Assembly: GCA_965231065.1 (NCBI GenBank)
Contig: OZ246410.1
Span: 487,886 to 511,885 of the forward strand
Reading direction: 5' to 3'
DNA length: 24,000 nt
Source of the DNA: an uncultured Methanosarcinales archaeon
GTDB taxonomy: Archaea; Nanobdellota; Nanobdellia; Woesearchaeales; UBA10107
This document shows, in pieces, positions 3,490 through 23,934 of this stretch. Position numbers and translations under genes: made by a program. The notes under the pieces are model-generated. The model did no database searches and had not been told where the DNA came from. It was given only the letters and a program-made list of their open reading frames with translations. How positions within the stretch are numbered: the first letter of the stretch is position 1; the number at the start of each line of letters is the position of its first letter.

Positions 3490-4602
3490 CTAGGATAAAT
3501 AGACCTGAGAAGCTTCTGTATCTCTTGCGACAACGATATCAAGATATCCATCGTGATTAAAGTCACCGACCGCGAGATCTTTGATGTAATTCCTGAACGG
3601 CGTGCTATACTCATTGCTTAAGGAGTATGCATCGCCTTGTTTCTGATATATCTGCAATGTCTGTTCATAATTGCCAATGAGTATCTCATCAACACCGTCG
3701 TTGTTCAGATCAGCCGCAAGCACCGCATACGTATTGCCCATACCGAATGCATCGAGGCGTTCAAATCCTGTCTCTTTATTCAGATATACTCTATTCGCTT
3801 CTTTGTTGTTTCCCTGCACAATATCTTTTCTGCCGTCACCGTCGATGTCAGAGATAGCAAGATCAGCAGTATTCGGGAGGTCATTCAGTTCAGCATTCAA
3901 TACGAATGTTTTGTCTCCTTGATTCAGATACACACGATTCGGCCGTCGTTCGATGCCAAGGACAAAATCAATCTTGCCGTCATTATTGAAGTCAGCTGCC
4001 TGTATCGCTTTCGCCGGGACGCCGCTCGAGATCTTTACTTTATTGAAATCGCCGTTGCCGTCGTTGAAATAGACATTATTATCTTTGAATGATGTCGCGA
4101 CCGCGAAATCATCATACCCATCATTATTGAAATCAGCGACTGCGATGTCTGTCACGACTGATTTCTCCAGTACTTTCGCGATTGAGAATGTGCCGTCTCC
4201 TTCGTTTCTCAGCACGAGGCTTGGTTCGTCCTTGTTGCCGAGGATGATATCTTTTTTGCCATCCTTGTTGAAGTCAATCACCGCGATTTTCTGTGTGTTG
4301 TGCTTTTCAGCAAGCAATTGTGTCTTGGTGAATGTGCCGTCTTTATTGTTGATGTAGAGATTGCTGGGTTTGTTGAAGATGCCGGCGACGATATCATCAT
4401 ACCCGTCATTATTGAAATCAGCGACTGCGACAGAATAGACGTAATCTTTTTCGAAATCAATAACAGTCGGAAAATCAATCGATTGTTTCGTGATCGTTTT
4501 CGGTTGTTGCAGTACTGGACTTTTTGCTTGTCCTGGCAGTGCAGTTTTGCATGAAACAAAGAGGATAAGAATCAGTGAAAGTGCGAGAATCTCTTTTTTC
4601 AT
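3490..4602 (-). CDS. FG-GAP repeat (7-bladed beta-propeller) lipoprotein
   Basis: Seven repeats of the Ca-binding FG-GAP core: ADFNNDGYDDIV, DFNKDGKKDIILG, ADFNNDGYDDFAV, ADFNNDGKIDFVLG, SDIDGDGRKDIVQG, ADLNNDGVDEILIG, GDFNHDGYLDIVV. The N-terminus MKKEILALSLILILFVSC has a lipobox-like LFVSC. I prefer the start at 4602 (GAGG about 9 nt upstream, TATA at 4635-4642) over the track start at 4626. Confidence 0.85.
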   Translation of the reverse strand: MKKEILALSLILILFVSCKTALPGQAKSPVLQQPKTITKQSIDFPTVIDFEKDYVYSVAVADFNNDGYDDIVAGIFNKPSNLYINNKDGTFTKTQLLAEKHNTQKIAVIDFNKDGKKDIILGNKDEPSLVLRNEGDGTFSIAKVLEKSVVTDIAVADFNNDGYDDFAVATSFKDNNVYFNDGNGDFNKVKISSGVPAKAIQAADFNNDGKIDFVLGIERRPNRVYLNQGDKTFVLNAELNDLPNTADLAISDIDGDGRKDIVQGNNKEANRVYLNKETGFERLDAFGMGNTYAVLAADLNNDGVDEILIGNYEQTLQIYQKQGDAYSLSNEYSTPFRNYIKDLAVGDFNHDGYLDIVVARDTEASQVYLS

Positions 4603-4677
4603 GTCTATTTCCTCTACTGAACGCAAGCCGTAGCTATATAAAAAGCTTATTATTCCTTCCCTGAGACACCATAATGA

Positions 4678-14565: not shown

Positions 14566-14687
14566 CGGTGTCGCCCGGATTTGAACCGGGATATCCTCAC
14601 GGAAACCGGTTGTTTCGGCGACGAAACCTCGCAAACGAAGTTTGCCGCGTTCAAGACCGGCGCAGTACCGGGTTGTGCCACGACACC
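14566..14687 (-). tRNA. tRNA-Ser (anticodon UGA) with a roughly 38-nt intron at or near position 37/38
   Basis: Hand-folded. Acceptor GGTGTCG/CGACACC with G73, 3-bp D stem with a GG loop, and anticodon stem CCGGT...ACCGG restored only if 14612-14649 is removed. Loop CUUGAA-A. Long variable arm TTTCCGTGAGGATAT. T arm CCCGG-TTCAAAT-CCGGG. No encoded CCA. Confidence 0.8.
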
Positions 14688-16602: not shown

Positions 16603-17067
16603 TCATATCTGATTGAACTGGCTTCGTGTGTATTGGATCATCTGCAGTATGTACGCATACGTCTGATCGAAATTAGAAATACCCACCAGCCTCATCTTTG
16701 GTTCGATAACCAGTGTTCCGGTATTGAACAGTTTGTCGAACAACGCTTTCTTCTGCTTGATGTTCTGGATCGCGTTATACATGATATATTTTGGTTTTGG
16801 CCCTTCAATCTGGATTCGATTTGAATAGATTGCATACTGCATCTTCGATGTTTGTACATAGCTCAATAAGCCCTGTATGATGACTAATAAAAGCAATACT
16901 GAGATGATAAGAATGTTGATATTGATCGGTATCGATATCCCTAAAAGGAAGATATTGAGTGCGATACCGACATAGAATATGATCGCCAAAAAGAACGTGA
17001 TGACTAATTGAGATGCTACGATACGCATCACATTTGGTTTGATGATGTATGTCGGCAGATCAGCCAT
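16603..17067 (-). CDS. Membrane protein with bacterial-type PH (bPH_2/YdbS-like) domain
   Basis: Two N-terminal TM helices followed by YAIYSNRIQIEGPKPKYIMYNAIQNIKQKKALFDKLFNTGTLVIE, the membrane-flanked PH-like pattern. The start is set at ATG 17067 because the track ORF (to 17181) runs through tRNA-Val. Confidence 0.6.
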   Translation of the reverse strand: MADLPTYIIKPNVMRIVASQLVITFFLAIIFYVGIALNIFLLGISIPININILIISVLLLLVIIQGLLSYVQTSKMQYAIYSNRIQIEGPKPKYIMYNAIQNIKQKKALFDKLFNTGTLVIEPKMRLVGISNFDQTYAYILQMIQYTRSQFNQI

Positions 17068-17144
17068 GATTATGAAATGGACGAAGGGGATTCCCACGTC
17101 AGAACCTTCGGTTCCGACACCTCCGAGCACTGCGTGATTATGAA

Positions 17145-17217
17145 TGGACCGGAGGAGATTCGAACTCCCGACCTCAACCACGTCAAGGTTGCGTTATAGC
17201 CACTAAACTACCGGTCC
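17145..17217 (-). tRNA. tRNA-Val (anticodon GAC)
   Basis: Canonical 73-nt cloverleaf: GGACCGG-TA-GTTT-AGTGGCTA-TAAC-G-CAACC-TTGACGT-GGTTG-AGGTC-GGGAG-TTCGAAT-CTCCT-CCGGTCC-A. Confidence 0.9.
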
Positions 17218-17243: not shown

Positions 17244-17255
17244 TTTATAAAGGTT
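17244..17255 (-). promoter_or_regulatory. BRE/TATA promoter of tRNA-Val
   Basis: The minus strand reads AACC-TTTATAAA. The TATA edge is 27 nt from tRNA position 1. It overlaps the stop codon of ORF 17254. Confidence 0.5.
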
Positions 17256-17751
17256 ATGCTCTGATCGCTTTGAGTTTCTTGATCGTTTCTTTACGTTCGT
17301 TCTGCATGATGCCGGTGATTTCATTAGTTTCTGTTGATTGAACCACTGATGTGGCGATCATTGCGCTTAATGCTCCTGTCAGCATGCCTCCTATAATGGA
17401 AGGCACTATCCAGATCGGCCGTGGATCGTTTGCTATATTTGTGTAGAGTATAGGTCCTGCGAACATTCCGCTTACAATGCCTGCAAATAATGCGATAGGT
17501 AATGTGCGTTCCATTTTATTCAGTCCTTCTTCAAAGGTATCTTTGTAGATGACTGATTTTATTTCAATAGAAGAGACGTATGCTCTGCAAATGTTCTCGA
17601 ATTCTTTTTGCTGTTCAGAAGTCAATGTTTTATATTCCGGATGATGCTGTTCTAATTTCTTGAAATAGTCATCGAGATGACTTCTGTCAATATCAGGATT
17701 GTGGAATGCTCCTCTGCTCAGAGAATCTGTGATTTCTGTTTCGAGGGACAT
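17254..17751 (-). CDS. Membrane protein (helical cytoplasmic N-domain plus two Gly-zipper TM helices), last gene of the surface-protein operon
   Basis: The track start at 17769 is a TTG. ATG 17751 is preceded by GAGG. TM segments are LPIALFAGIVSGMFAGPILY and IWIVPSIIGGMLTGALSAMIATSVV. It lies 18 nt downstream of the 1408-aa gene's stop. Confidence 0.55.
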   Translation of the reverse strand: MSLETEITDSLSRGAFHNPDIDRSHLDDYFKKLEQHHPEYKTLTSEQQKEFENICRAYVSSIEIKSVIYKDTFEEGLNKMERTLPIALFAGIVSGMFAGPILYTNIANDPRPIWIVPSIIGGMLTGALSAMIATSVVQSTETNEITGIMQNERKETIKKLKAIRA

Positions 17752-17769
17752 ATTTGCCTCAGTAAACAA

Positions 17770-20700
17770 CTAGACCCAGATCTTTCTGATTCCTAAGAAT
17801 AGTAAAAGACCAGCGACTAATGTAGCTGCTGACACACCGATACCGACCGGTACTGAAGCGTTTGGCGGCGGAGCTATCTCACCCATTACCTTGATGACAC
17901 CGTCTTTGATGCTTTCGGTGACTGGTATTGACGCTCCTGCTTTTGGTTCTTTTAATGTGAGCTTTAATTTCAATTGCGTCTGGGAATCTATATTGCTGTT
18001 GTAGATGATATCCTGCAATGAAACAGACAGTATCCTGTCCTTGATTGTGAATTCGAATGTATCATACTTGTATCCTGTTCTGATTTCATCAGTCGGACTG
18101 ATTCTCATAGTGACTTGATTTGAATCCTTCTTGACATCATCGATAACTAAGCTGTACGAAGTACCTTGGTATTCGAACATGATGGTGTCGATCCGTCTGA
18201 TGGTCTTTGTCCATGGATTCTCTGCGACATTCCATAAGTAATTGTTACTGTTGACTAAGAGAGTCTGATCTAATGTAGGTGTTGCGTCGCTTGTTATGAA
18301 TGATCCTCTGCTTGATCCGCCTGGGTTGCTTGCTGTAGCTGAAGAGACTGTGACTGATCTGCTTATGCTTGATACGAGATTAGTGCTGTCTGTTACGGTG
18401 TAGGTGACTGAATAGGTGTTTGCTGAAGTGTATGTATGGGAAGGATTCGTTGAAGTGTCAATAGGACTTCCATCACCGAAGTTCCAGCTTCGTGAGACAA
18501 TATCTGAATTCGGATCGCTTGATGCATCACTGAATGATACGTCAAGATAATTTGTATTGTAATTGAAACCAGCAACCGGTGGGTATGGAACCTGTGCAGG
18601 TCCTGTCACATTGACGCCGTTTGGTAATGTGATAGTTCCGCTTGTAAGATTTCCATTCACGATTGTCGCATTTGTCAATATCATATTTGATAATGTGGTA
18701 TTCATGACATTTGAGTTCGTTGCATTGACGTTTGTCAATGTTGAATCAGTTACTGTTGTATTGATGAGATTGCTGTTCGTGATATTTGAATTTGTTATGA
18801 CGCTTCCTGCAGTTATCGTTGAGTTACTGACTACACTTCCTGTGGTGACATTCGAATCAGTTACAGTGCTTCCGGATACTGTTGAGTCTGTTACGACTGC
18901 GTTCGTAGCATTGCTGCCGGTTACAGTAGAGCTTGTGATTGTTGATGTCATCACTGTGCTTCCATTTACTGTTGAAAGTGTTATTGAAGATCCTGAGACG
19001 TTTGAATTGTCTATTGTGTTATCTGTGACGTTAGTGTTGTTCATATTCACAGACGTAAGATTCGATCTGATTATTCTTGAGTATGTCGCGATTGAATTTT
19101 TTACATTTGAATCTGTTACATTTGAACCAGTTGTAGTGCTGTTGATCTTTGTAGATGGATCCCAGTACTCATTCAAACATGAACCATCATAGGCTGTATC
19201 AATGATGACGCAGTTGACGATAGTCGCTGCGTTTGTTATTGTTGATCTTAAGATTGTTGAGTTCGTCATGCTTATGCTGACATCTACCTGAGGAGAGTTG
19301 GTGACGGTTGATAGGTTATCAATCGCAACACTTGTCACGTCAGTAGATATATTTGATGGGAAGTATATTCCGTTGATTGTTGAGTTTAAGATGTTGAAAA
19401 CTGACGGTATTCCCGGATTCGCAGCTGTCGTGAATGTCAATGTTCCTGCAGTCGCGCAGTTGTTGCTGCCGTCGCATGAAGTGACATTGAAATTATACAA
19501 TGTATTTGCTGCGAGATTTACGAGCATGATTGAATGATTGAATACGTATGAACTGTCATTCTGGAATGTTCCCAGTGCTGAAGTCAGTCCGTAGTTTACC
19601 GTTGAATTCGCTGATTCATCAGTAGTCCAATTGATCGTTGCTGTTGAATTGGTGAAGTTGACAACCTGTATGTTTGAAATAGCAGGGGCAGTGACATCAT
19701 TGTTCTGCAATGTAGTCTGCGCATTTGTGATTGTGGTTGCGTTTACATTATTCGATGTGTCGAATGTCTGTACGCCGATGGTGTACAATGTGTTGTTTGT
19801 CAATCCTGATGCAGTGTATGAAGTATCGACTGCAGTGAGATTTACGACATTGACGCCATTGATGAATATGATTGTTCCGTTGAAGTCTACATTGACTGGA
19901 TTGATCCAGTTCCATGTGATTGATTGATTTGTTATTCCTGTTGCACTCAAGCTCGTGATGGTCGCTGGTGCTGTGGTGTCAGGTGGTACGATGCTGTTCG
20001 ATATTCCTTGTGTGCAGGTCTGGAATGTCCAGTCTGCTGGTGTATTGGTATCGACGCCATTTGGCATTCGTGCCTGGCAGTTATTGCTTGAAACAGATTC
20101 AGCTAATGTCGGTGTTTGATCGATTAGATTTGAATTATTGTCGTACAATGTTACGAATTCTCCTGCATTGTTTAAATTGATGACATTCGCTACATAGTAG
20201 CCATTTGCAGCAAGTATTGTGCTTGCAGGTACAGTGTGTCTTAATGTCGGTGAAGCGAGTCCATCCCATATCTGCCATCCGCTGATATCGACAGCAAATG
20301 CATTTGGATTGTATAATTCGACCCATTCGCTTCCTGCGACCGGGTTCTGTTCGAATTCATTTACGAGGATTGTGTTGATGACTGGTGCCGCATTGACTGT
20401 GATTGTCTGTAGCGTTGAATTGATGCTGCCATCTGAATCTGTCACAGACAGATTGACAGTATATGTTCCTGCGACTGCGTATGAGTGTGAAGTGACATTC
20501 TGTGTCACATAATCAATGACACCATCGTTATCCATGTCCCAGTTCCATGCGACGATTGAGTCAGGGAATGATGTTGAAAGATCAGTGAAATTGATTGGAT
20601 CATTTACCAAGACTGTTGTTGCTGAAGCTGAGAAATTCGCAGCAGGAGCAAGATCGTTTACGGTGATTGTGCTTGTTGAGATATTTGTGCTTCCATCGTC

Positions 20701-21996
20701 ATCAGTCACGGTAAGACTTACAGTGTACACGCCGTTGCTCATGTATGTGTGAGTAGGATTCTGTGTGGTATCCAATGGAGAACTGTCTCCGAAGTCCCAT
20801 GACCATGAGACGATCAGATCAGGGAATGATGTTGATGCGTCAGTAAATGTTACTGACTGTCCTTCATTGATTGTATTCGCTGATTGTGTAAAGCTTGAGA
20901 TAGGAGATAGATCGTTTACAGTAACTGAACTTGTAGTTGTATTAGTGCTGCCGTCATCATCGGTGACTGTTAATGTGACTGTATATGTTCCATTATCTAG
21001 ATATTGATGTGTCGGATTCTGAGTCGTTGCGGTGTTTCCATCGCCAAAGTCCCAGTTCCAAGCGACAAGTAAATCAGGAGCTGAGACAGATGTATCGGTG
21101 AAGACAACTGACTGCCCTTCATTTATGACTGCAAGATTTTGTGTGAAGCTTGCTGTCGGAGCAAGATCATTGACTGTGATTGTCTGTATGCTTGAATTTA
21201 CAGAACCATCATTGTCAGTGACTGATAGATTGATTGTGTATGTACCATTATCTAGGTATGTGTGAGTAGGATTCTGAACTGTGTAATCGATTGTTCCATC
21301 GTTATCGATGTCCCAATTCCATGCGACGATCGGATCGTAGCTTGTTGATGCGTCAGTCAGTGTTACTGCGACACCTTCATTCACTGGATTCGCTGAGATT
21401 CCAAAATTTGAGACTGGTGTTTGGTCGCCGATGACTGCTGTTGTCATCGCTGTTGCTGATGCGCCATAGGCGTCAGTCGCTGTCAATGATACGTTATACG
21501 TGCCATTCTGTGCGTAGAGATGAGTAGGATTCTGTATGTTTGCGGTATTGGTATCACCGAAGTTCCATGCGTATGAACTTATTGCGTCATTATCGATGTT
21601 GTCGACTGCAGTACCGGTGAATGCTACATTGGTTATTCCTTCGATGCCTGCGTATGGTCCATTTGCATTGACCGTAGGTGGTGCGTTCTGGATTGTGACT
21701 GTTGATTGTCCAAGAAGTACTGTTCCGGTGAATGCGTTTGGTGGCATGAACATCTTACATGTCCACGTGTCGAAATGTGTGGTTGCTGAATTAGGAATAC
21801 TATTAGATGTATATGACTTCTGTGCACCGTTCTGGAACCATTGATACAGATATGCATTTGCGTTTCCGCCGTTGCTGCAGACTAGATTCTGATCAGATAA
21901 TGGTGCTGAAGGTGCTATACTGACTGCTGCGAAAGCACTGACGCTAGATGTGAGTAAGAACAATACACTTAGTATTGCGATTAGTTTTGATTTCAT
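17770..21996 (-). CDS. Giant multi-domain cell-surface protein (PKD x6, lamin-tail domain, FN3 x2, pentapeptide-like beta-helix, C-terminal TM anchor)
   Basis: 1408 aa. Signal peptide MKSKLIAILSVLFLLTSSVSAFA. PKD signatures WNFGDG/WNWDFGDG...NPTH.Y...G.YTV.LTVTD.DGS occur at about aa 106-536 (five tandem) and 1136-1218. An LTD-like segment INTILVNEFEQNPVAGSEWVELYNPNAFAVDISGWQI spans aa 537-665. Two FN3-like modules span aa 672-858. An S/T/N-rich 5-residue periodic region spans aa 905-1125. The C-terminus is PVGIGVSAATLVAGLLLFLGIRKIWV. Confidence 0.9.
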   Translation of the reverse strand: MKSKLIAILSVLFLLTSSVSAFAAVSIAPSAPLSDQNLVCSNGGNANAYLYQWFQNGAQKSYTSNSIPNSATTHFDTWTCKMFMPPNAFTGTVLLGQSTVTIQNAPPTVNANGPYAGIEGITNVAFTGTAVDNIDNDAISSYAWNFGDTNTANIQNPTHLYAQNGTYNVSLTATDAYGASATAMTTAVIGDQTPVSNFGISANPVNEGVAVTLTDASTSYDPIVAWNWDIDNDGTIDYTVQNPTHTYLDNGTYTINLSVTDNDGSVNSSIQTITVNDLAPTASFTQNLAVINEGQSVVFTDTSVSAPDLLVAWNWDFGDGNTATTQNPTHQYLDNGTYTVTLTVTDDDGSTNTTTSSVTVNDLSPISSFTQSANTINEGQSVTFTDASTSFPDLIVSWSWDFGDSSPLDTTQNPTHTYMSNGVYTVSLTVTDDDGSTNISTSTITVNDLAPAANFSASATTVLVNDPINFTDLSTSFPDSIVAWNWDMDNDGVIDYVTQNVTSHSYAVAGTYTVNLSVTDSDGSINSTLQTITVNAAPVINTILVNEFEQNPVAGSEWVELYNPNAFAVDISGWQIWDGLASPTLRHTVPASTILAANGYYVANVINLNNAGEFVTLYDNNSNLIDQTPTLAESVSSNNCQARMPNGVDTNTPADWTFQTCTQGISNSIVPPDTTAPATITSLSATGITNQSITWNWINPVNVDFNGTIIFINGVNVVNLTAVDTSYTASGLTNNTLYTIGVQTFDTSNNVNATTITNAQTTLQNNDVTAPAISNIQVVNFTNSTATINWTTDESANSTVNYGLTSALGTFQNDSSYVFNHSIMLVNLAANTLYNFNVTSCDGSNNCATAGTLTFTTAANPGIPSVFNILNSTINGIYFPSNISTDVTSVAIDNLSTVTNSPQVDVSISMTNSTILRSTITNAATIVNCVIIDTAYDGSCLNEYWDPSTKINSTTTGSNVTDSNVKNSIATYSRIIRSNLTSVNMNNTNVTDNTIDNSNVSGSSITLSTVNGSTVMTSTITSSTVTGSNATNAVVTDSTVSGSTVTDSNVTTGSVVSNSTITAGSVITNSNITNSNLINTTVTDSTLTNVNATNSNVMNTTLSNMILTNATIVNGNLTSGTITLPNGVNVTGPAQVPYPPVAGFNYNTNYLDVSFSDASSDPNSDIVSRSWNFGDGSPIDTSTNPSHTYTSANTYSVTYTVTDSTNLVSSISRSVTVSSATASNPGGSSRGSFITSDATPTLDQTLLVNSNNYLWNVAENPWTKTIRRIDTIMFEYQGTSYSLVIDDVKKDSNQVTMRISPTDEIRTGYKYDTFEFTIKDRILSVSLQDIIYNSNIDSQTQLKLKLTLKEPKAGASIPVTESIKDGVIKVMGEIAPPPNASVPVGIGVSAATLVAGLLLFLGIRKIWV
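18622..19284 (-). repeat. Pentapeptide-like repeat region (about 40 units) inside the giant protein
   Basis: A strict 5-residue period is visible in TLSTV/NGSTV/MTSTI/TSSTV/TGSNA/TNAVV/TDSTV/SGSTV/TDSNV/TTGSV...NVNAT/NSNVM/NTTLS/NMILT/NATIV/NGNLT, with an aliphatic residue every fifth position. Confidence 0.6.
20389..21681 (-). repeat. Five tandem PKD-domain repeats (about 85 aa, or 255 nt, each)
   Basis: The units have recurring boundaries (NDLAP/NDLSP...TVNDL). Units 3 and 4 are about 70 percent identical by eye. Units 2 and 5 share a DNDG(T/V)IDY insertion. Confidence 0.8.
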
Positions 21997-23216
21997 TGAG
22001 TTTTAGCTTCTGGTGTTGGAGCAGCCGGTGTTGAGTCACGCACTGTGCCTCCTGATCGTGGACCTGTACGTGCCGAAATTTCTTTCTTCTTTCCATTTCC
22101 AAAGATGTGACTGAAATTTATTGTCGCGCCGCCATAGATGGTGTGTTCATGTAATGCTGATGTATTTGAAACGCCTGAAAGCATCATTTCATATCCAATC
22201 AATGGGCTGATATCTGATCCGATCTTTCCTTTGAGCTGTTTCTTTGCCTCAAGACTAAATCTTGTGTAATCTGTCTCATATTCAGAGCCAGTGCTGTCAG
22301 TGACCATCTCGCCGATGTTTTCCAAAGAAGCTTCAAATTGCAATGCAGGTACGTATACCTTTGCAGTCAATGAGAAATTTTCTCTCTTGAAATCGTTTGT
22401 GATTCCGTACGGAGCTATATCTGATGTGCCGAATACTTTGCCGATCTTCGCTTCGAGCTCGAGTGCGTTATTGAGTGTATATTCAACAGTGAATTCGTAT
22501 CCTTTTCCGCTGTCGCTCTTGGTGATATCAATGATGTCATATTTGATGTCTGCATTTCTGCCGAACATCTTGAATCCGCCTGCAAGGCTTACGAGATGAG
22601 CAAGATTCTTTGCTTTGATCACTTTTCCATAGCCAAGGCTGAATGCAAGATCAGTGATTGAACCTTTTGTTGATCCATTTTCCTGGTCTGCAAGATAATT
22701 TGTCAAGCTTGTTGGCTGTATCTTTGCATCGACACGCAGGAATTGTTTCTGTTTCTTTGAATCGAGACCAAGCTCGAGTTCTGTATTAAGATTAAGTTGT
22801 GATCCTTTAGAAGCGAAATCGACGACATCCGTGCCGATATCTGTCTGAGAACCGGTGCTATATGATCCGAATGTTGCATCCTGTTCAAGGATAAGGTAAG
22901 GTTTGATATTTGATGTGATGGTGTTTCCATCCGCATCGACTTTTGGTACTTTGACTTTCTTTACTTTCGGAGCTTTTACTTTCTTTGCTTTGGTCTTTGT
23001 TATTTGTTCAGATATTGCTCGATCCTGTGCTTGCTCAAGAGTTGTTTTATCTGCGTTGATTGTATTAGAAGTTGCTTCTACAACAGGGGCTGTTGCATTG
23101 ACTGGTGCTGCTTGCGTAGCTGGTCCATCTTCAGGATTGAGAATTACTTGTGCGTATGTGTTGCTTGCTGCTAATGCAGCGATTCCAAAAAGTGCATTTC
23201 TTAGTTTACTGTTCAT
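21993..23216 (-). CDS. Secreted beta-rich protein with a porin-like amphipathic strand pattern; first gene of the surface-protein operon
   Basis: 407 aa. Signal peptide MNSKLRNALFGIAALAASNTYAQ, a Pro/Ala/Thr linker, and the Lys-rich KKVKAPKVKKVKVPKV. About 12-13 segments have alternating hydrophobic residues (LNLNTELELGLD, YEFTVEYTLNNALELEAKIGKVF, FSLTAKVYVPALQFEASLENI, YGGATINFSHIF). The GGGGG SD lies 7 nt upstream. The stop overlaps the next ATG (ATGA at 21993-21996). Confidence 0.8.
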   Translation of the reverse strand: MNSKLRNALFGIAALAASNTYAQVILNPEDGPATQAAPVNATAPVVEATSNTINADKTTLEQAQDRAISEQITKTKAKKVKAPKVKKVKVPKVDADGNTITSNIKPYLILEQDATFGSYSTGSQTDIGTDVVDFASKGSQLNLNTELELGLDSKKQKQFLRVDAKIQPTSLTNYLADQENGSTKGSITDLAFSLGYGKVIKAKNLAHLVSLAGGFKMFGRNADIKYDIIDITKSDSGKGYEFTVEYTLNNALELEAKIGKVFGTSDIAPYGITNDFKRENFSLTAKVYVPALQFEASLENIGEMVTDSTGSEYETDYTRFSLEAKKQLKGKIGSDISPLIGYEMMLSGVSNTSALHEHTIYGGATINFSHIFGNGKKKEISARTGPRSGGTVRDSTPAAPTPEAKTQ

Positions 23217-23385
23217 TATATTGCCCCCAATATATCTGTATTATCTAGTACACCCCAGACTAAAGGATGAATACTCATATATAAATCTTTCCATTATTAG
23301 TTATTATGTAGTAGTAACAATAATACTATCTATATATTTTCTATATGGAAAATATTCATTAGAGAAGACAAAGATACTATGGAAT

Positions 23386-23697
23386 TTATTGCTTAAGCAA
23401 GGCTTCTATGCCTTGCTTGAACGGAGGAAGAATCTTGTTGATCTCTTCGATTGTGGTCTGCGCTTTCGGATTCATCCTATGCTTCATGCATACATCTAAT
23501 CTATAGAATAATCCGTCTAACTTTGAAGCAGAATCAGTAAGTTCAGGAGGAAGTTCGCTGCAGTATCCTATGAATCTCATCTTCAATTGCGAAACAATAT
23601 TCTCTACCGTGCTGACTCTCATCTCATCGAATGCTTTTTCTGCTTTTTGATATGCATCAAGCAACTTCAGAATGATCCGATATGATTGCTCTGTCAT
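23386..23697 (-). CDS. Hypothetical helical protein
   Basis: 103-aa ORF with an ATG start 22 nt from a TATA-like TTAATATAAG. Predicted all-helical by composition. No family recognised. Confidence 0.5.
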   Translation of the reverse strand: MTEQSYRIILKLLDAYQKAEKAFDEMRVSTVENIVSQLKMRFIGYCSELPPELTDSASKLDGLFYRLDVCMKHRMNPKAQTTIEEINKILPPFKQGIEALLKQ

Positions 23698-23742: not shown

Positions 23743-23815
23743 AGCCCTCGGTGGGATGTGCGCCCACGACCTGCTGCTTACTAGGCAGCCGCTATAGCTA
23801 CTAAGCCACGAGGGC
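23743..23815 (-). tRNA. Non-canonical tRNA, Thr-like (anticodon AGU)
   Basis: 73 nt: GCCCTCG-TG-GCTT-AGTAGCTA-TAGC-G-GCTGC-CTAGTAA-GCAGC-AGGTC-GTGGG-CGCACAT-CCCAC-CGAGGGC-T. The acceptor (7 bp), anticodon (5 bp) and T (5 bp) stems are perfect. U33 and A37 are present and the discriminator is U73. The D loop lacks GG and the T loop lacks the TTC/A58 consensus. Confidence 0.6.
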
Positions 23816-23822
23816 AATTGGA

Positions 23823-23906
23823 TGCGGGAGGCAGGACTCGAACCTGCGAAGACACTAAGTCAAAGGCTCTTAAGGCCTTCGCATTTGACCACTTTGCTAC
23901 TCCCGC
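23823..23906 (-). tRNA. tRNA-Leu (anticodon UAA)
   Basis: 84-nt class II cloverleaf: GCGGGAG...AAGGC-CTTAAGA-GCCTT, variable arm TGACTTAGTGTCTTC, T arm GCAGG-TTCGAGT-CCTGC, A73. It ends 7 nt upstream of the next tRNA. Confidence 0.9.
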
Positions 23907-23934
23907 AAAGCTAACAGAGTGAGTTTATACGTCT

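Follow-up and report, generated by a model that had tools for sequence, protein, structure and literature searches.

Transmembrane β-barrels are considered characteristic of diderm bacteria and of the organelles derived from them. To our knowledge, barrels resembling outer-membrane proteins (OMPs) are not known from archaea, and the Woesearchaeota, very small symbiotic archaea that are abundant and uncultured, are thought to have one membrane. In a 24,000-nt stretch of Woesearchaeal DNA from contig OZ246410.1 (hereafter the window, meaning the whole stretch), a 407-aa protein encoded by gene 1 (21993-23216, minus strand) is best read as a predicted 12-stranded transmembrane-type β-barrel, and it is paired with a 1408-aa giant adhesin encoded by gene 2 (17770-21996, minus strand). 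The comparison of related loci indicates that these genes are a conserved, translationally coupled two-gene unit. Neither a described archaeal module of a barrel and an adhesin nor a verified archaeal β-barrel membrane protein was found in the open-access literature, in agreement with the initial annotation of this DNA, which knew of no described archaeal system of the same composition. What appears to be new here is that an archaeon encodes an OMP-type barrel together with an adhesin, the two being separate proteins, and that the sequence family is new.

Among described systems, the autotransporters and inverse autotransporters of secretion types Va and Ve (Hbp, EspP, NalP and intimin) likewise have a 12-stranded barrel of similar size, and are the best structural matches of the archaeal model, with template-modelling scores (TM-scores) of 0.50-0.53, and their barrel is genetically tied to a long adhesin of Ig-like and β-helix modules, as in the archaeal pair. 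In contrast to these systems, the archaeal barrel and adhesin are encoded by two separate genes in 10/10 loci, and each polypeptide begins at a start codon of its own and carries its own signal peptide; the adhesin has its own C-terminal membrane anchor, and the organism is an archaeon without a known β-barrel assembly machinery (BAM). The Autotransporter and IAT_beta models of Pfam did not match the barrel family even at E ≤ 0.1. A covalent autotransporter was thus rejected on the basis of the separate open reading frames (ORFs) in all ten loci and the lack of matches to these two models.

The gene order of a barrel followed by a giant exoprotein is also that of two-partner secretion (TpsB, ShlB or FhaC with TpsA; CdiB with CdiA), and the archaeal barrel has a weak similarity to ShlB (E about 1e-3). 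CdiA has been proposed to insert a β-barrel-forming segment into the outer membrane of the target cell. However, the 16 strands and two POTRA domains of TpsB and the TPS domain of TpsA are all missing from the archaeal pair. Two-partner secretion was rejected since the barrel has 12 strands rather than 16 and no POTRA match, the N-terminus of the partner is Ig-like, and the partner carries its own signal peptide and transmembrane anchor. The chaperone-usher pathway was rejected since the barrel has 12 strands rather than 24 and no usher, chaperone or pilin match was obtained. The initial annotation had likened the gene order to two-partner secretion or usher logic, and the strand number, the POTRA and TPS domains, and the signal peptide and anchor of the partner all speak against that analogy. 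In β-pore-forming toxins, soluble monomers each contribute one or two hairpins to an oligomeric barrel; this class was rejected because a single archaeal chain forms a complete 12-stranded barrel in the AlphaFold2 (AF2) model.

Small OMPs of the OmpX/Ail, OpcA and OmpT/Pla type (OMP_b-brl) share other features with the archaeal protein, namely a hydrophobic belt at the end where the termini lie, a polar extension of the barrel beyond the membrane, and a Gly-rich, charged lumen. They have 8-10 strands, not 12, and are without a C-terminal aromatic β-signal that is followed by a tail, whereas the archaeal family has long low-complexity basic extensions at both ends. The module seems to work in a similar way to the bacterial barrel-plus-adhesin solutions (type V secretion and small adhesin OMPs) and yet to lie outside each of them.

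Tir, the receptor of intimin, is a helical protein delivered by type III injection, and the tir gene shares a transcript with eae in the LEE5 operon. β-Barrels that move into the membrane of another cell have been described as well, in that PopA of Bdellovibrio moves into the prey and PorB of Neisseria into mitochondria (PMC12228718). As in the logic proposed below for the archaeal pair, in PopA, PorB and the Tir/intimin pair a membrane protein encoded by the producer ends up in the membrane of the partner. The archaeal barrel has no sequence relationship or specific structural relationship to PopA, PorB or Tir, and a transfer is a proposal here.

Within Archaea, giant multidomain surface proteins are common in DPANN lineages, and Ihomp1 of Ignicoccus is α-helical. 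Ihomp1, the hami of Altiarchaeum and giant DPANN adhesins such as SPEARE are likewise archaeal cell-contact structures, but none of them is known to be paired with an OMP-like β-barrel. The hami have been described as S-layer-like filaments (PMC4460559).

Predicted fold and family of the barrel protein

The 407-aa protein consists of a signal peptide (aa 1-22), a linker rich in Pro, Ala, Thr and Lys (aa 23-103), the barrel core (aa 104-372; 22101-22907, minus strand) and a 35-residue Pro/Thr/Lys tail (aa 373-407). Read by eye, the signal peptide (MNSKLRNALFGIAALAASNTYA/Q) shows a hydrophobic core behind a basic n-region and ends in a site of the A-x-A type (TYA/Q), and a Sec signal peptide can be read in all full-length members of the barrel family. 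The core is assigned as a barrel on the AF2 model, the Foldseek matches, the subthreshold Pfam matches, the belt and girdle profile, and conservation. With an alignment of 10 core sequences, AF2 gave a predicted local distance difference test score (pLDDT) of 90.2 and a predicted TM-score of 0.82, and all five models reached 88-90; the model computed from the single 407-aa sequence had a pLDDT of 32 and was useless. The model obtained with the alignment contains 12 antiparallel strands of 16-25 residues each, which are joined by turns of 2-4 residues in a next-neighbour meander.

When the Protein Data Bank (PDB) was searched with Foldseek, 282 matches were obtained at E ≤ 0.001, and the best 50 were all integral outer-membrane barrels. 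Among the matches listed, the best global fits were the 12-stranded β-domains of the autotransporters Hbp (TM-scores 0.53/0.52) and EspP (0.51/0.51), and the best E-values belonged to the fatty-acid channel FadL. Small anchor or adhesin OMPs of the OmpX/Ail, OpcA and OmpT/Pla type were also matched. A structure search of BFVD with the barrel returned phage-borne OMP homologues only, with poor TM-scores.

The distribution of residues on the two faces of the strands was evaluated by laying the AF2-predicted strand boundaries on the family alignment and pooling strands and members by depth from the termini end. Each strand carries 9-11 residues of strict hydrophobic/polar alternation, always at the end of the barrel that bears the N- and C-termini. 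In the pooled family profile, charged residues make up no more than 6% of the hydrophobic face over five alternating positions, and aliphatic residues peak at 76% at mid-belt. Aromatic residues amount to 23% and 21% at the two edges of this face, as compared to 8% in its middle, which is the classical aromatic-girdle pattern. At mid-belt, Gly accounts for 24-32% and charged residues for 28-44% of the opposite face. On the far side of the belt the polarity is inverted, the outside being polar or charged and the inside becoming increasingly aliphatic. Twenty-eight positions are conserved at ≥ 80%, 21 of which lie on the lumen face, including eight belt glycines, and the most conserved positions of the barrel are found in the distal interior and the distal turns. 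The hydrophobic face is kept in character only, with variable residue identity. Since identity varies on this face and the conserved glycines lie opposite to it, the hydrophobic face is probably exposed to lipid rather than forming a soluble core, and the orientation of a soluble barrel was rejected for the same reason.

These results argue for a barrel rather than a soluble β-sandwich, as the initial annotation had proposed from the run of β-strands, and the 12 strands of the AF2 model, the outer-membrane barrels matched by Foldseek, and the belt and conservation patterns agree in this respect. The additional suggestion of a pore-former is not favoured, because the distal half of the barrel interior is hydrophobic, as in anchor-type barrels. 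Since the polarity inverts beyond the belt and the distal interior is hydrophobic, the protein appears to fit a protruding, anchor-type barrel better than an open channel. A signal peptide and 12 long amphipathic strands are present as first described; the chain does not end in an aromatic residue, since the barrel ends at ...TINFSHIF (residue 372) and the 35-residue tail follows. The last strand has the form G-x-x-hydrophobic-x-hydrophobic/aromatic in most members of the family (YGGATINF in the window), and it is followed by a tail of 11-79 residues and is thus not C-terminal.

Only subthreshold Pfam matches were obtained with the 407-aa protein, and all of them were to bacterial outer-membrane barrel families: OMP_b-brl (PF13505, MBB clan; E 0.0016, 19-20 bits against a cut-off of 28.7 bits) and ShlB (E 0.0026, 18.9 against 22.7 bits). 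When the whole family was searched at E ≤ 0.1, OMP_b-brl was matched by 3/10 members (best E 8.4e-6), ShlB by 2/10 and CopB by 1/10, and no non-barrel Pfam family recurred among the 10 members. Homology of the barrel family to any specific bacterial family is not established by these similarities.

A phmmer search of the 407-aa protein against 1.84 billion representative proteins gave 11 proteins at E ≤ 0.001, namely the query, nine family members (P0004-P0012) and a marginal match of 1635 aa (E 5.5e-4). The barrel family is thus rare, with 10 clusters. Its homologues are confined to one Woesearchaeal locus type, and they are not the ordinary S-layer proteins that would have spoken against a dedicated module. 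No paralogues of the family were found among the 1.84 billion proteins, so that there is one family at one locus. In all members, the signal peptide is followed by a variable N-terminal region that runs into a basic linker, then by a conserved core of ca. 270 aa, and finally by a Pro/Thr-rich tail with lysines at its end. A word-index homology search with the full 407-aa protein gave the self-match alone, and the same search with the full-length family alignment recovered two members, probably because the low-complexity linkers swamped the candidates. A barrel-pattern scan of contigs from GTDB representative genomes found no relative. A scan of 80 Woesearchaeal loci anchored on TFIIB yielded no additional barrels; the conservation of TFIIB is too high for close relatives to be traced by it, and the synteny is lost outside the clade.

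Two peculiarities of individual family members were observed. P0006, P0010 and P0011 (loci L085, L091 and L092) have an extra N-terminal domain of ca. 100-250 aa before the basic linker, which has no Pfam family and is partly conserved (KP.IG.I.VKP ... DP ... DR.TQ.Y.LP). In L003 (6982-7044 of that locus), the start of the barrel protein P0004 (388 aa) given by the database and the ORF finder lies inside the conserved TATA box, and the true start is almost certainly the internal MNKYKK, 21 codons downstream.

The giant adhesin, its pairing with the barrel and the conserved promoter

The domains of the 1408-aa protein are arranged in the order signal peptide, Ig-like head, five PKD domains, LTD, two FN3 domains, a pentapeptide-like β-helix, one further PKD domain (six in total), a stalk domain and a C-terminal transmembrane helix that serves as the anchor. 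This composition agrees with that given in the initial annotation. The Ig-like head (aa 24-109; 21670-21927, minus strand) spans ca. 86 residues and is 36-54% identical to the heads of all 10 partners. Two Cys and two Trp residues are invariant in the pattern L-x-C ... Y-x-W ... N-G ... W-x-C, a motif layout that is an Ig-like signature, and Pfam Ig_2 was matched weakly (E 0.0076). A word-index search with the head-domain alignment gave no match. The stalk domain and anchor (aa 1219-1408; 17773-18342, minus strand), ca. 190 residues in length, are 46-57% identical in the three full-length giants, which have 1408, 1499 and 1532 aa and differ in the PKD, LTD, FN3 and β-helix content of their middle parts. 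The stalk domain had no match to any Pfam family. At the C-terminus, PVGIG is followed by a transmembrane helix (about aa 1380-1402 by hydropathy) and then by RKIW. The tripartite layout of archaeosortase (PGF-CTERM) substrates, namely PVGIG, transmembrane helix and RK, is present and conserved, and no CTERM model of NCBIfam was matched at E ≤ 0.01.

In the giant of one related locus (L093, 1419-2108), the signal peptide and the Ig-like head are separated by a Cys-rich insert of ca. 55 residues (CGNG...C...C...C...C). In a more distant Woesearchaeon (L032), an ORF that runs off the start of the locus (1-1086) has a C-terminus weakly matching the stalk/anchor domain (E 3e-10), and it lies near a pair of genes for a bPH-like protein and an AI-2E transporter. 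Because of this location, giants related to gene 2 may occupy this neighbourhood more widely, possibly without a barrel.

In the 10/10 distinct barrel loci, a large gene on the same strand starts -4 to +5 nt after the barrel stop codon, and 10/10 of the downstream proteins begin with a signal peptide and the same head domain. Hidden Markov models of the three conserved parts (barrel, head and stalk) were applied to 1.2 Mb of Woesearchaeal DNA, in which barrel and head co-occurred strictly and neither was found alone. In the window, genes 1 and 2 overlap in ATGA (21993-21996), as read from the sequence, and there is no room for a promoter between them. A single transcript carrying the barrel and giant genes with translational coupling is the straightforward reading of this arrangement. 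The pair stands in a conserved frame of tRNA-Leu/Thr, barrel, giant, tRNA-Val, bPH-like membrane protein and AI-2E transporter. Between the window and L003 or L088, identity was 35% or 26% in the barrel core, 53% or 46% in the head and 50% or 57% in the stalk, as compared to 55-64% in the flanking genes; the TFIIB of the window is 96% identical to that of L003. The barrel-giant pair evolves faster than the neighbouring genes, and we read this fast divergence as suggestive of a surface protein or a host interface.

The region 5' of the barrel gene is far better conserved than the encoded proteins. A TATA box, TTTATATA (23278-23285, minus strand), is located upstream of gene 1, one base from the position first assigned to it (23277-23284). 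In 9/9 related loci covering the region it is invariant at the orthologous position, at a distance of 50-70 nt from the start codon, and the AGAAA in front of it resembles a B recognition element (BRE). The combined BRE/TATA promoter, GGAAAGATTTATATA (23278-23292, minus strand), was assigned from its conserved position and from consensus enrichment. The extended BRE/TATA consensus, AGAAANNTTTATATA, matches three times in the window against 0.07 expected, each time before an ORF. Since this number and placement exceed chance, the TATA call appears sound, and the consensus is a general promoter signature of the source genome. The leader of the barrel gene contains a GGGG tract. A Shine-Dalgarno-like GGGGG tract (23224-23228, minus strand) is located 8 nt before the ATG of gene 1 in the window, and TTGGGGG is present before the start codon in 8/9 aligned loci. 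Directly 5' of the BRE/TATA promoter, the element GTTACTACT-N4-5-AATAACTAA (23297-23318, minus strand) aligns in all related loci covering the region and is essentially restricted to barrel-gene promoters in the 1.2 Mb of Woesearchaeal loci. It is probably the binding site of a dedicated transcription factor or regulator. An extra match to the element in L032 was rejected as a chance occurrence, there being no TATA box at that position.

Behind the giant gene, the stop codon TAG (17770-17772) is followed by an 18-nt spacer, ttgtttactGAGGcaaat, and by the ATG (17751) of gene 3 (17254-17751, minus strand), which encodes 165 aa counted from this ATG; the entry of the ORF finder is a TTG-extended version of 171 aa. 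The ORF coordinates, the ATGA overlap, the GAGG in the 18-nt spacer and the GGGGG tract are as in the initial annotation, which had described three tightly packed minus-strand genes. Since the spacer includes GAGG and no promoter-like sequence, gene 3 is probably co-transcribed with genes 1 and 2 in the source genome. The 165-aa protein has no signal peptide and has two hydrophobic helices at about residues 83-104 and 113-138, again as first described. No family match was obtained for it in Pfam or NCBIfam, and no meaningful match in PDB. The three-gene synteny proposed at the outset holds for genes 1 and 2 in all ten loci and does not hold for gene 3, since no homologue of the 165-aa protein was found in any related locus. 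In L003, the closest relative, an unrelated 193-aa protein with an N-terminal transmembrane helix takes its position, and in L088 the stop codon of the giant is directly followed by tRNA-Val, leaving the position empty. These observations place gene 3 outside the conserved module, and it is probably a lineage-specific passenger.

Placement and role of the barrel

As a functional unit, the module would be a two-gene operon with a conserved archaeal BRE/TATA promoter and an operon-specific upstream element. The product of gene 1 would be a Sec-exported, single-chain 12-stranded OMP-type barrel with a hydrophobic belt about 10-12 residues high; a polar extension of the barrel would project opposite the belt, and flexible basic linkers and tails would emerge on the belt side. 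The product of gene 2 would be a type-I membrane protein with its C-terminal helix in the archaeon's own cytoplasmic membrane, holding a disulfide-type Ig-like head roughly 50 nm out on a variable PKD/LTD/FN3/β-helix stalk, a length that is an estimate from the domain count. Since a full belt would be harmful in the organism's own energised membrane and a monoderm archaeon offers no other obvious home for it, the model suggests a second lipid membrane as the site of the barrel, where it would be the membrane-embedded counterpart of the adhesin, a placement to which we give about an even chance. Within this placement, the membrane of a host cell is favoured because the head would lie ca. 50 nm out, beyond a typical S-layer, where another cell would be; this more specific claim is a tentative one. 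The barrel would act as an anchor or receptor and not as an open pore. Planted in the membrane of the partner (host) cell, it could be a self-supplied attachment point gripped by the head of the adhesin, following the logic of Tir and intimin. The head is suggested as the contact of the barrel because of the strict pairing and the conservation of this distal domain, and the flexible Pro/Thr linkers, with lysine clusters at their ends, could attach the barrel to an anionic surface by electrostatic contacts. The fullest form of the proposal, in which this would be the first true transmembrane β-barrel family in Archaea, assembled without BAM and planted in a partner membrane by a two-gene 'harpoon' for episymbiotic attachment, is possible rather than probable.

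Several points weigh against a barrel planted in the partner membrane. We know of no BAM-type insertase in Archaea, nor of proof that a 12-stranded barrel can insert by itself into a native foreign membrane. An insertion into the host would require the polar half of the barrel to cross the target bilayer. The closure of the barrel and the orientation of its side chains are inferred from TM-scores and sequence periodicity, every Pfam match of the family lies under its curated threshold, and a profile search of the PDB sequences with the barrel family gave no match. Finally, two membranes have been reported in several symbiotic archaea, including DPANN archaea (ARMAN) (PMC4243693), which is compatible with an outer membrane of the organism itself. 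In that case, the protein would be a resident OMP barrel of a Woesearchaeal clade with its termini, linker and Lys-rich tail in a pseudo-periplasm, and the giant, anchored in the inner membrane, would be an envelope-spanning or surface partner, a tether comparable to OmpA or to Omp-alpha/Omp-beta. The topology is exactly that of bacterial OMPs, with both termini on the belt side and a polar crown on the other, and a possible OMP relative has been noted in the double-membraned Altiarchaeales (PMC12228718). Nevertheless, the outer layer of a cultured DPANN relative of ARMAN has been re-interpreted as an S-layer (PMC11329633), and a general outer membrane is argued against by the single barrel family at one locus without paralogues among 1.84 billion proteins. 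The barrel is also unlike an open channel, so that such a membrane would be without porins, no BAM/Omp85 is known in archaea, and a giant of an estimated 50 nm far exceeds a typical archaeal pseudo-periplasm. We therefore consider an own outer membrane unlikely.

A barrel outside any membrane would be secreted or integrated in the S-layer, with its belt buried in protein contacts (an oligomer or a collar) or holding lipid, and it could serve the adhesin as a cap, a chaperone or a lipid-scavenging cup. The top Foldseek E-values to FadL and the high conservation of the distal interior and turns would suit such a role, and DPANN archaea rely on host lipids (PMC11035636). However, the belt has membrane-type statistics with aromatic girdles and no charges, its residue identity is variable, unlike a protein-protein interface or a soluble core, and the structural matches, among those listed, are all integral outer-membrane proteins, which makes this explanation rather improbable. 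The initial annotation had proposed a three-component apparatus of the adhesin, a pore-former in the partner membrane and the 165-aa protein as base or regulator. The probable co-transcription of gene 3, 18 nt behind the giant gene, is in its favour, but for gene 3 the proposal is largely refuted by the synteny described above, and the hydrophobic distal interior of the barrel argues against an open pore; we regard it as highly improbable. The chance that the barrel is an artefact, either through a bacterial contaminant or chimeric contig or through AF2 over-prediction on a shallow alignment, seems close to negligible. The alignment has 10 sequences only and the single-sequence model was poor; on the other hand, at least four contigs that were assembled independently of one another carry the pair, flanked by archaeal tRNAs and archaeal genes, in conserved synteny and behind an archaeal BRE/TATA promoter, and three sequence analyses independent of AF2 (the family-wide Pfam search, the belt profile and conservation) agree. 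Taken together, these considerations leave a second membrane, possibly that of a host, as the placement preferred here.

A confidently predicted barrel family in archaea would be notable, the more so as this one is conserved and strictly linked to an adhesin in an operon. Two possibilities would follow, namely that some Woesearchaeota have an unrecognised outer membrane, or that an archaeon exports a barrel into the membrane of another cell; either of these, if true, would change the view of DPANN cell envelopes and host attachment. The fast-evolving two-protein contact module may offer a concrete handle on the hosts of Woesearchaeota and their mechanism of attachment, and it could also be a minimal system for BAM-independent barrel assembly.

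Genomic setting of the module

The window encodes an archaeal TFIIB, L10e, a family-B DNA polymerase and isoleucyl-tRNA synthetase. Its TFIIB is 81-97% identical to those of metagenome-assembled genomes labelled Woesearchaeota or Nanoarchaeota, and by this similarity the lineage of the organism is Woesearchaeota/DPANN. A 122-nt Rfam tRNA match (14566-14687, minus strand; 42 bits) that is absent from the ARAGORN output is probably an intron-containing archaeal tRNA. The archaeal context noted in the initial annotation is in accord with TFIIB, L10e, the family-B DNA polymerase and this intron-sized tRNA.

The block of three genes is framed by tRNA genes on either side. The downstream boundary is tRNA-Val(GAC) (17145-17217, minus strand), which is also found behind the module in L003 and L088. 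The upstream boundary consists of tRNA-Thr(AGT) and tRNA-Leu(TAA) (23743-23907, minus strand), and the same tRNAs are located upstream in L003, L084, L090 and L092. The ORF of the bPH-like protein (192 aa; 16603-17181, minus strand) has a GTG start inside tRNA-Val. The homologous proteins of L003 and L088 can be aligned with it only from residue 32-39 on, so that the true start is probably the internal Met of MADLPTY... (near 17067). A 103-aa ORF (23386-23697, minus strand) in the interval from tRNA-Thr to the barrel promoter has no family match and no homologue in the equivalent spacer of 370-420 nt in related loci, and for these reasons it may not be a real gene. Elsewhere in the window, a 378-aa protein with FG-GAP/β-propeller repeats (3490-4626, minus strand) is another likely surface protein.

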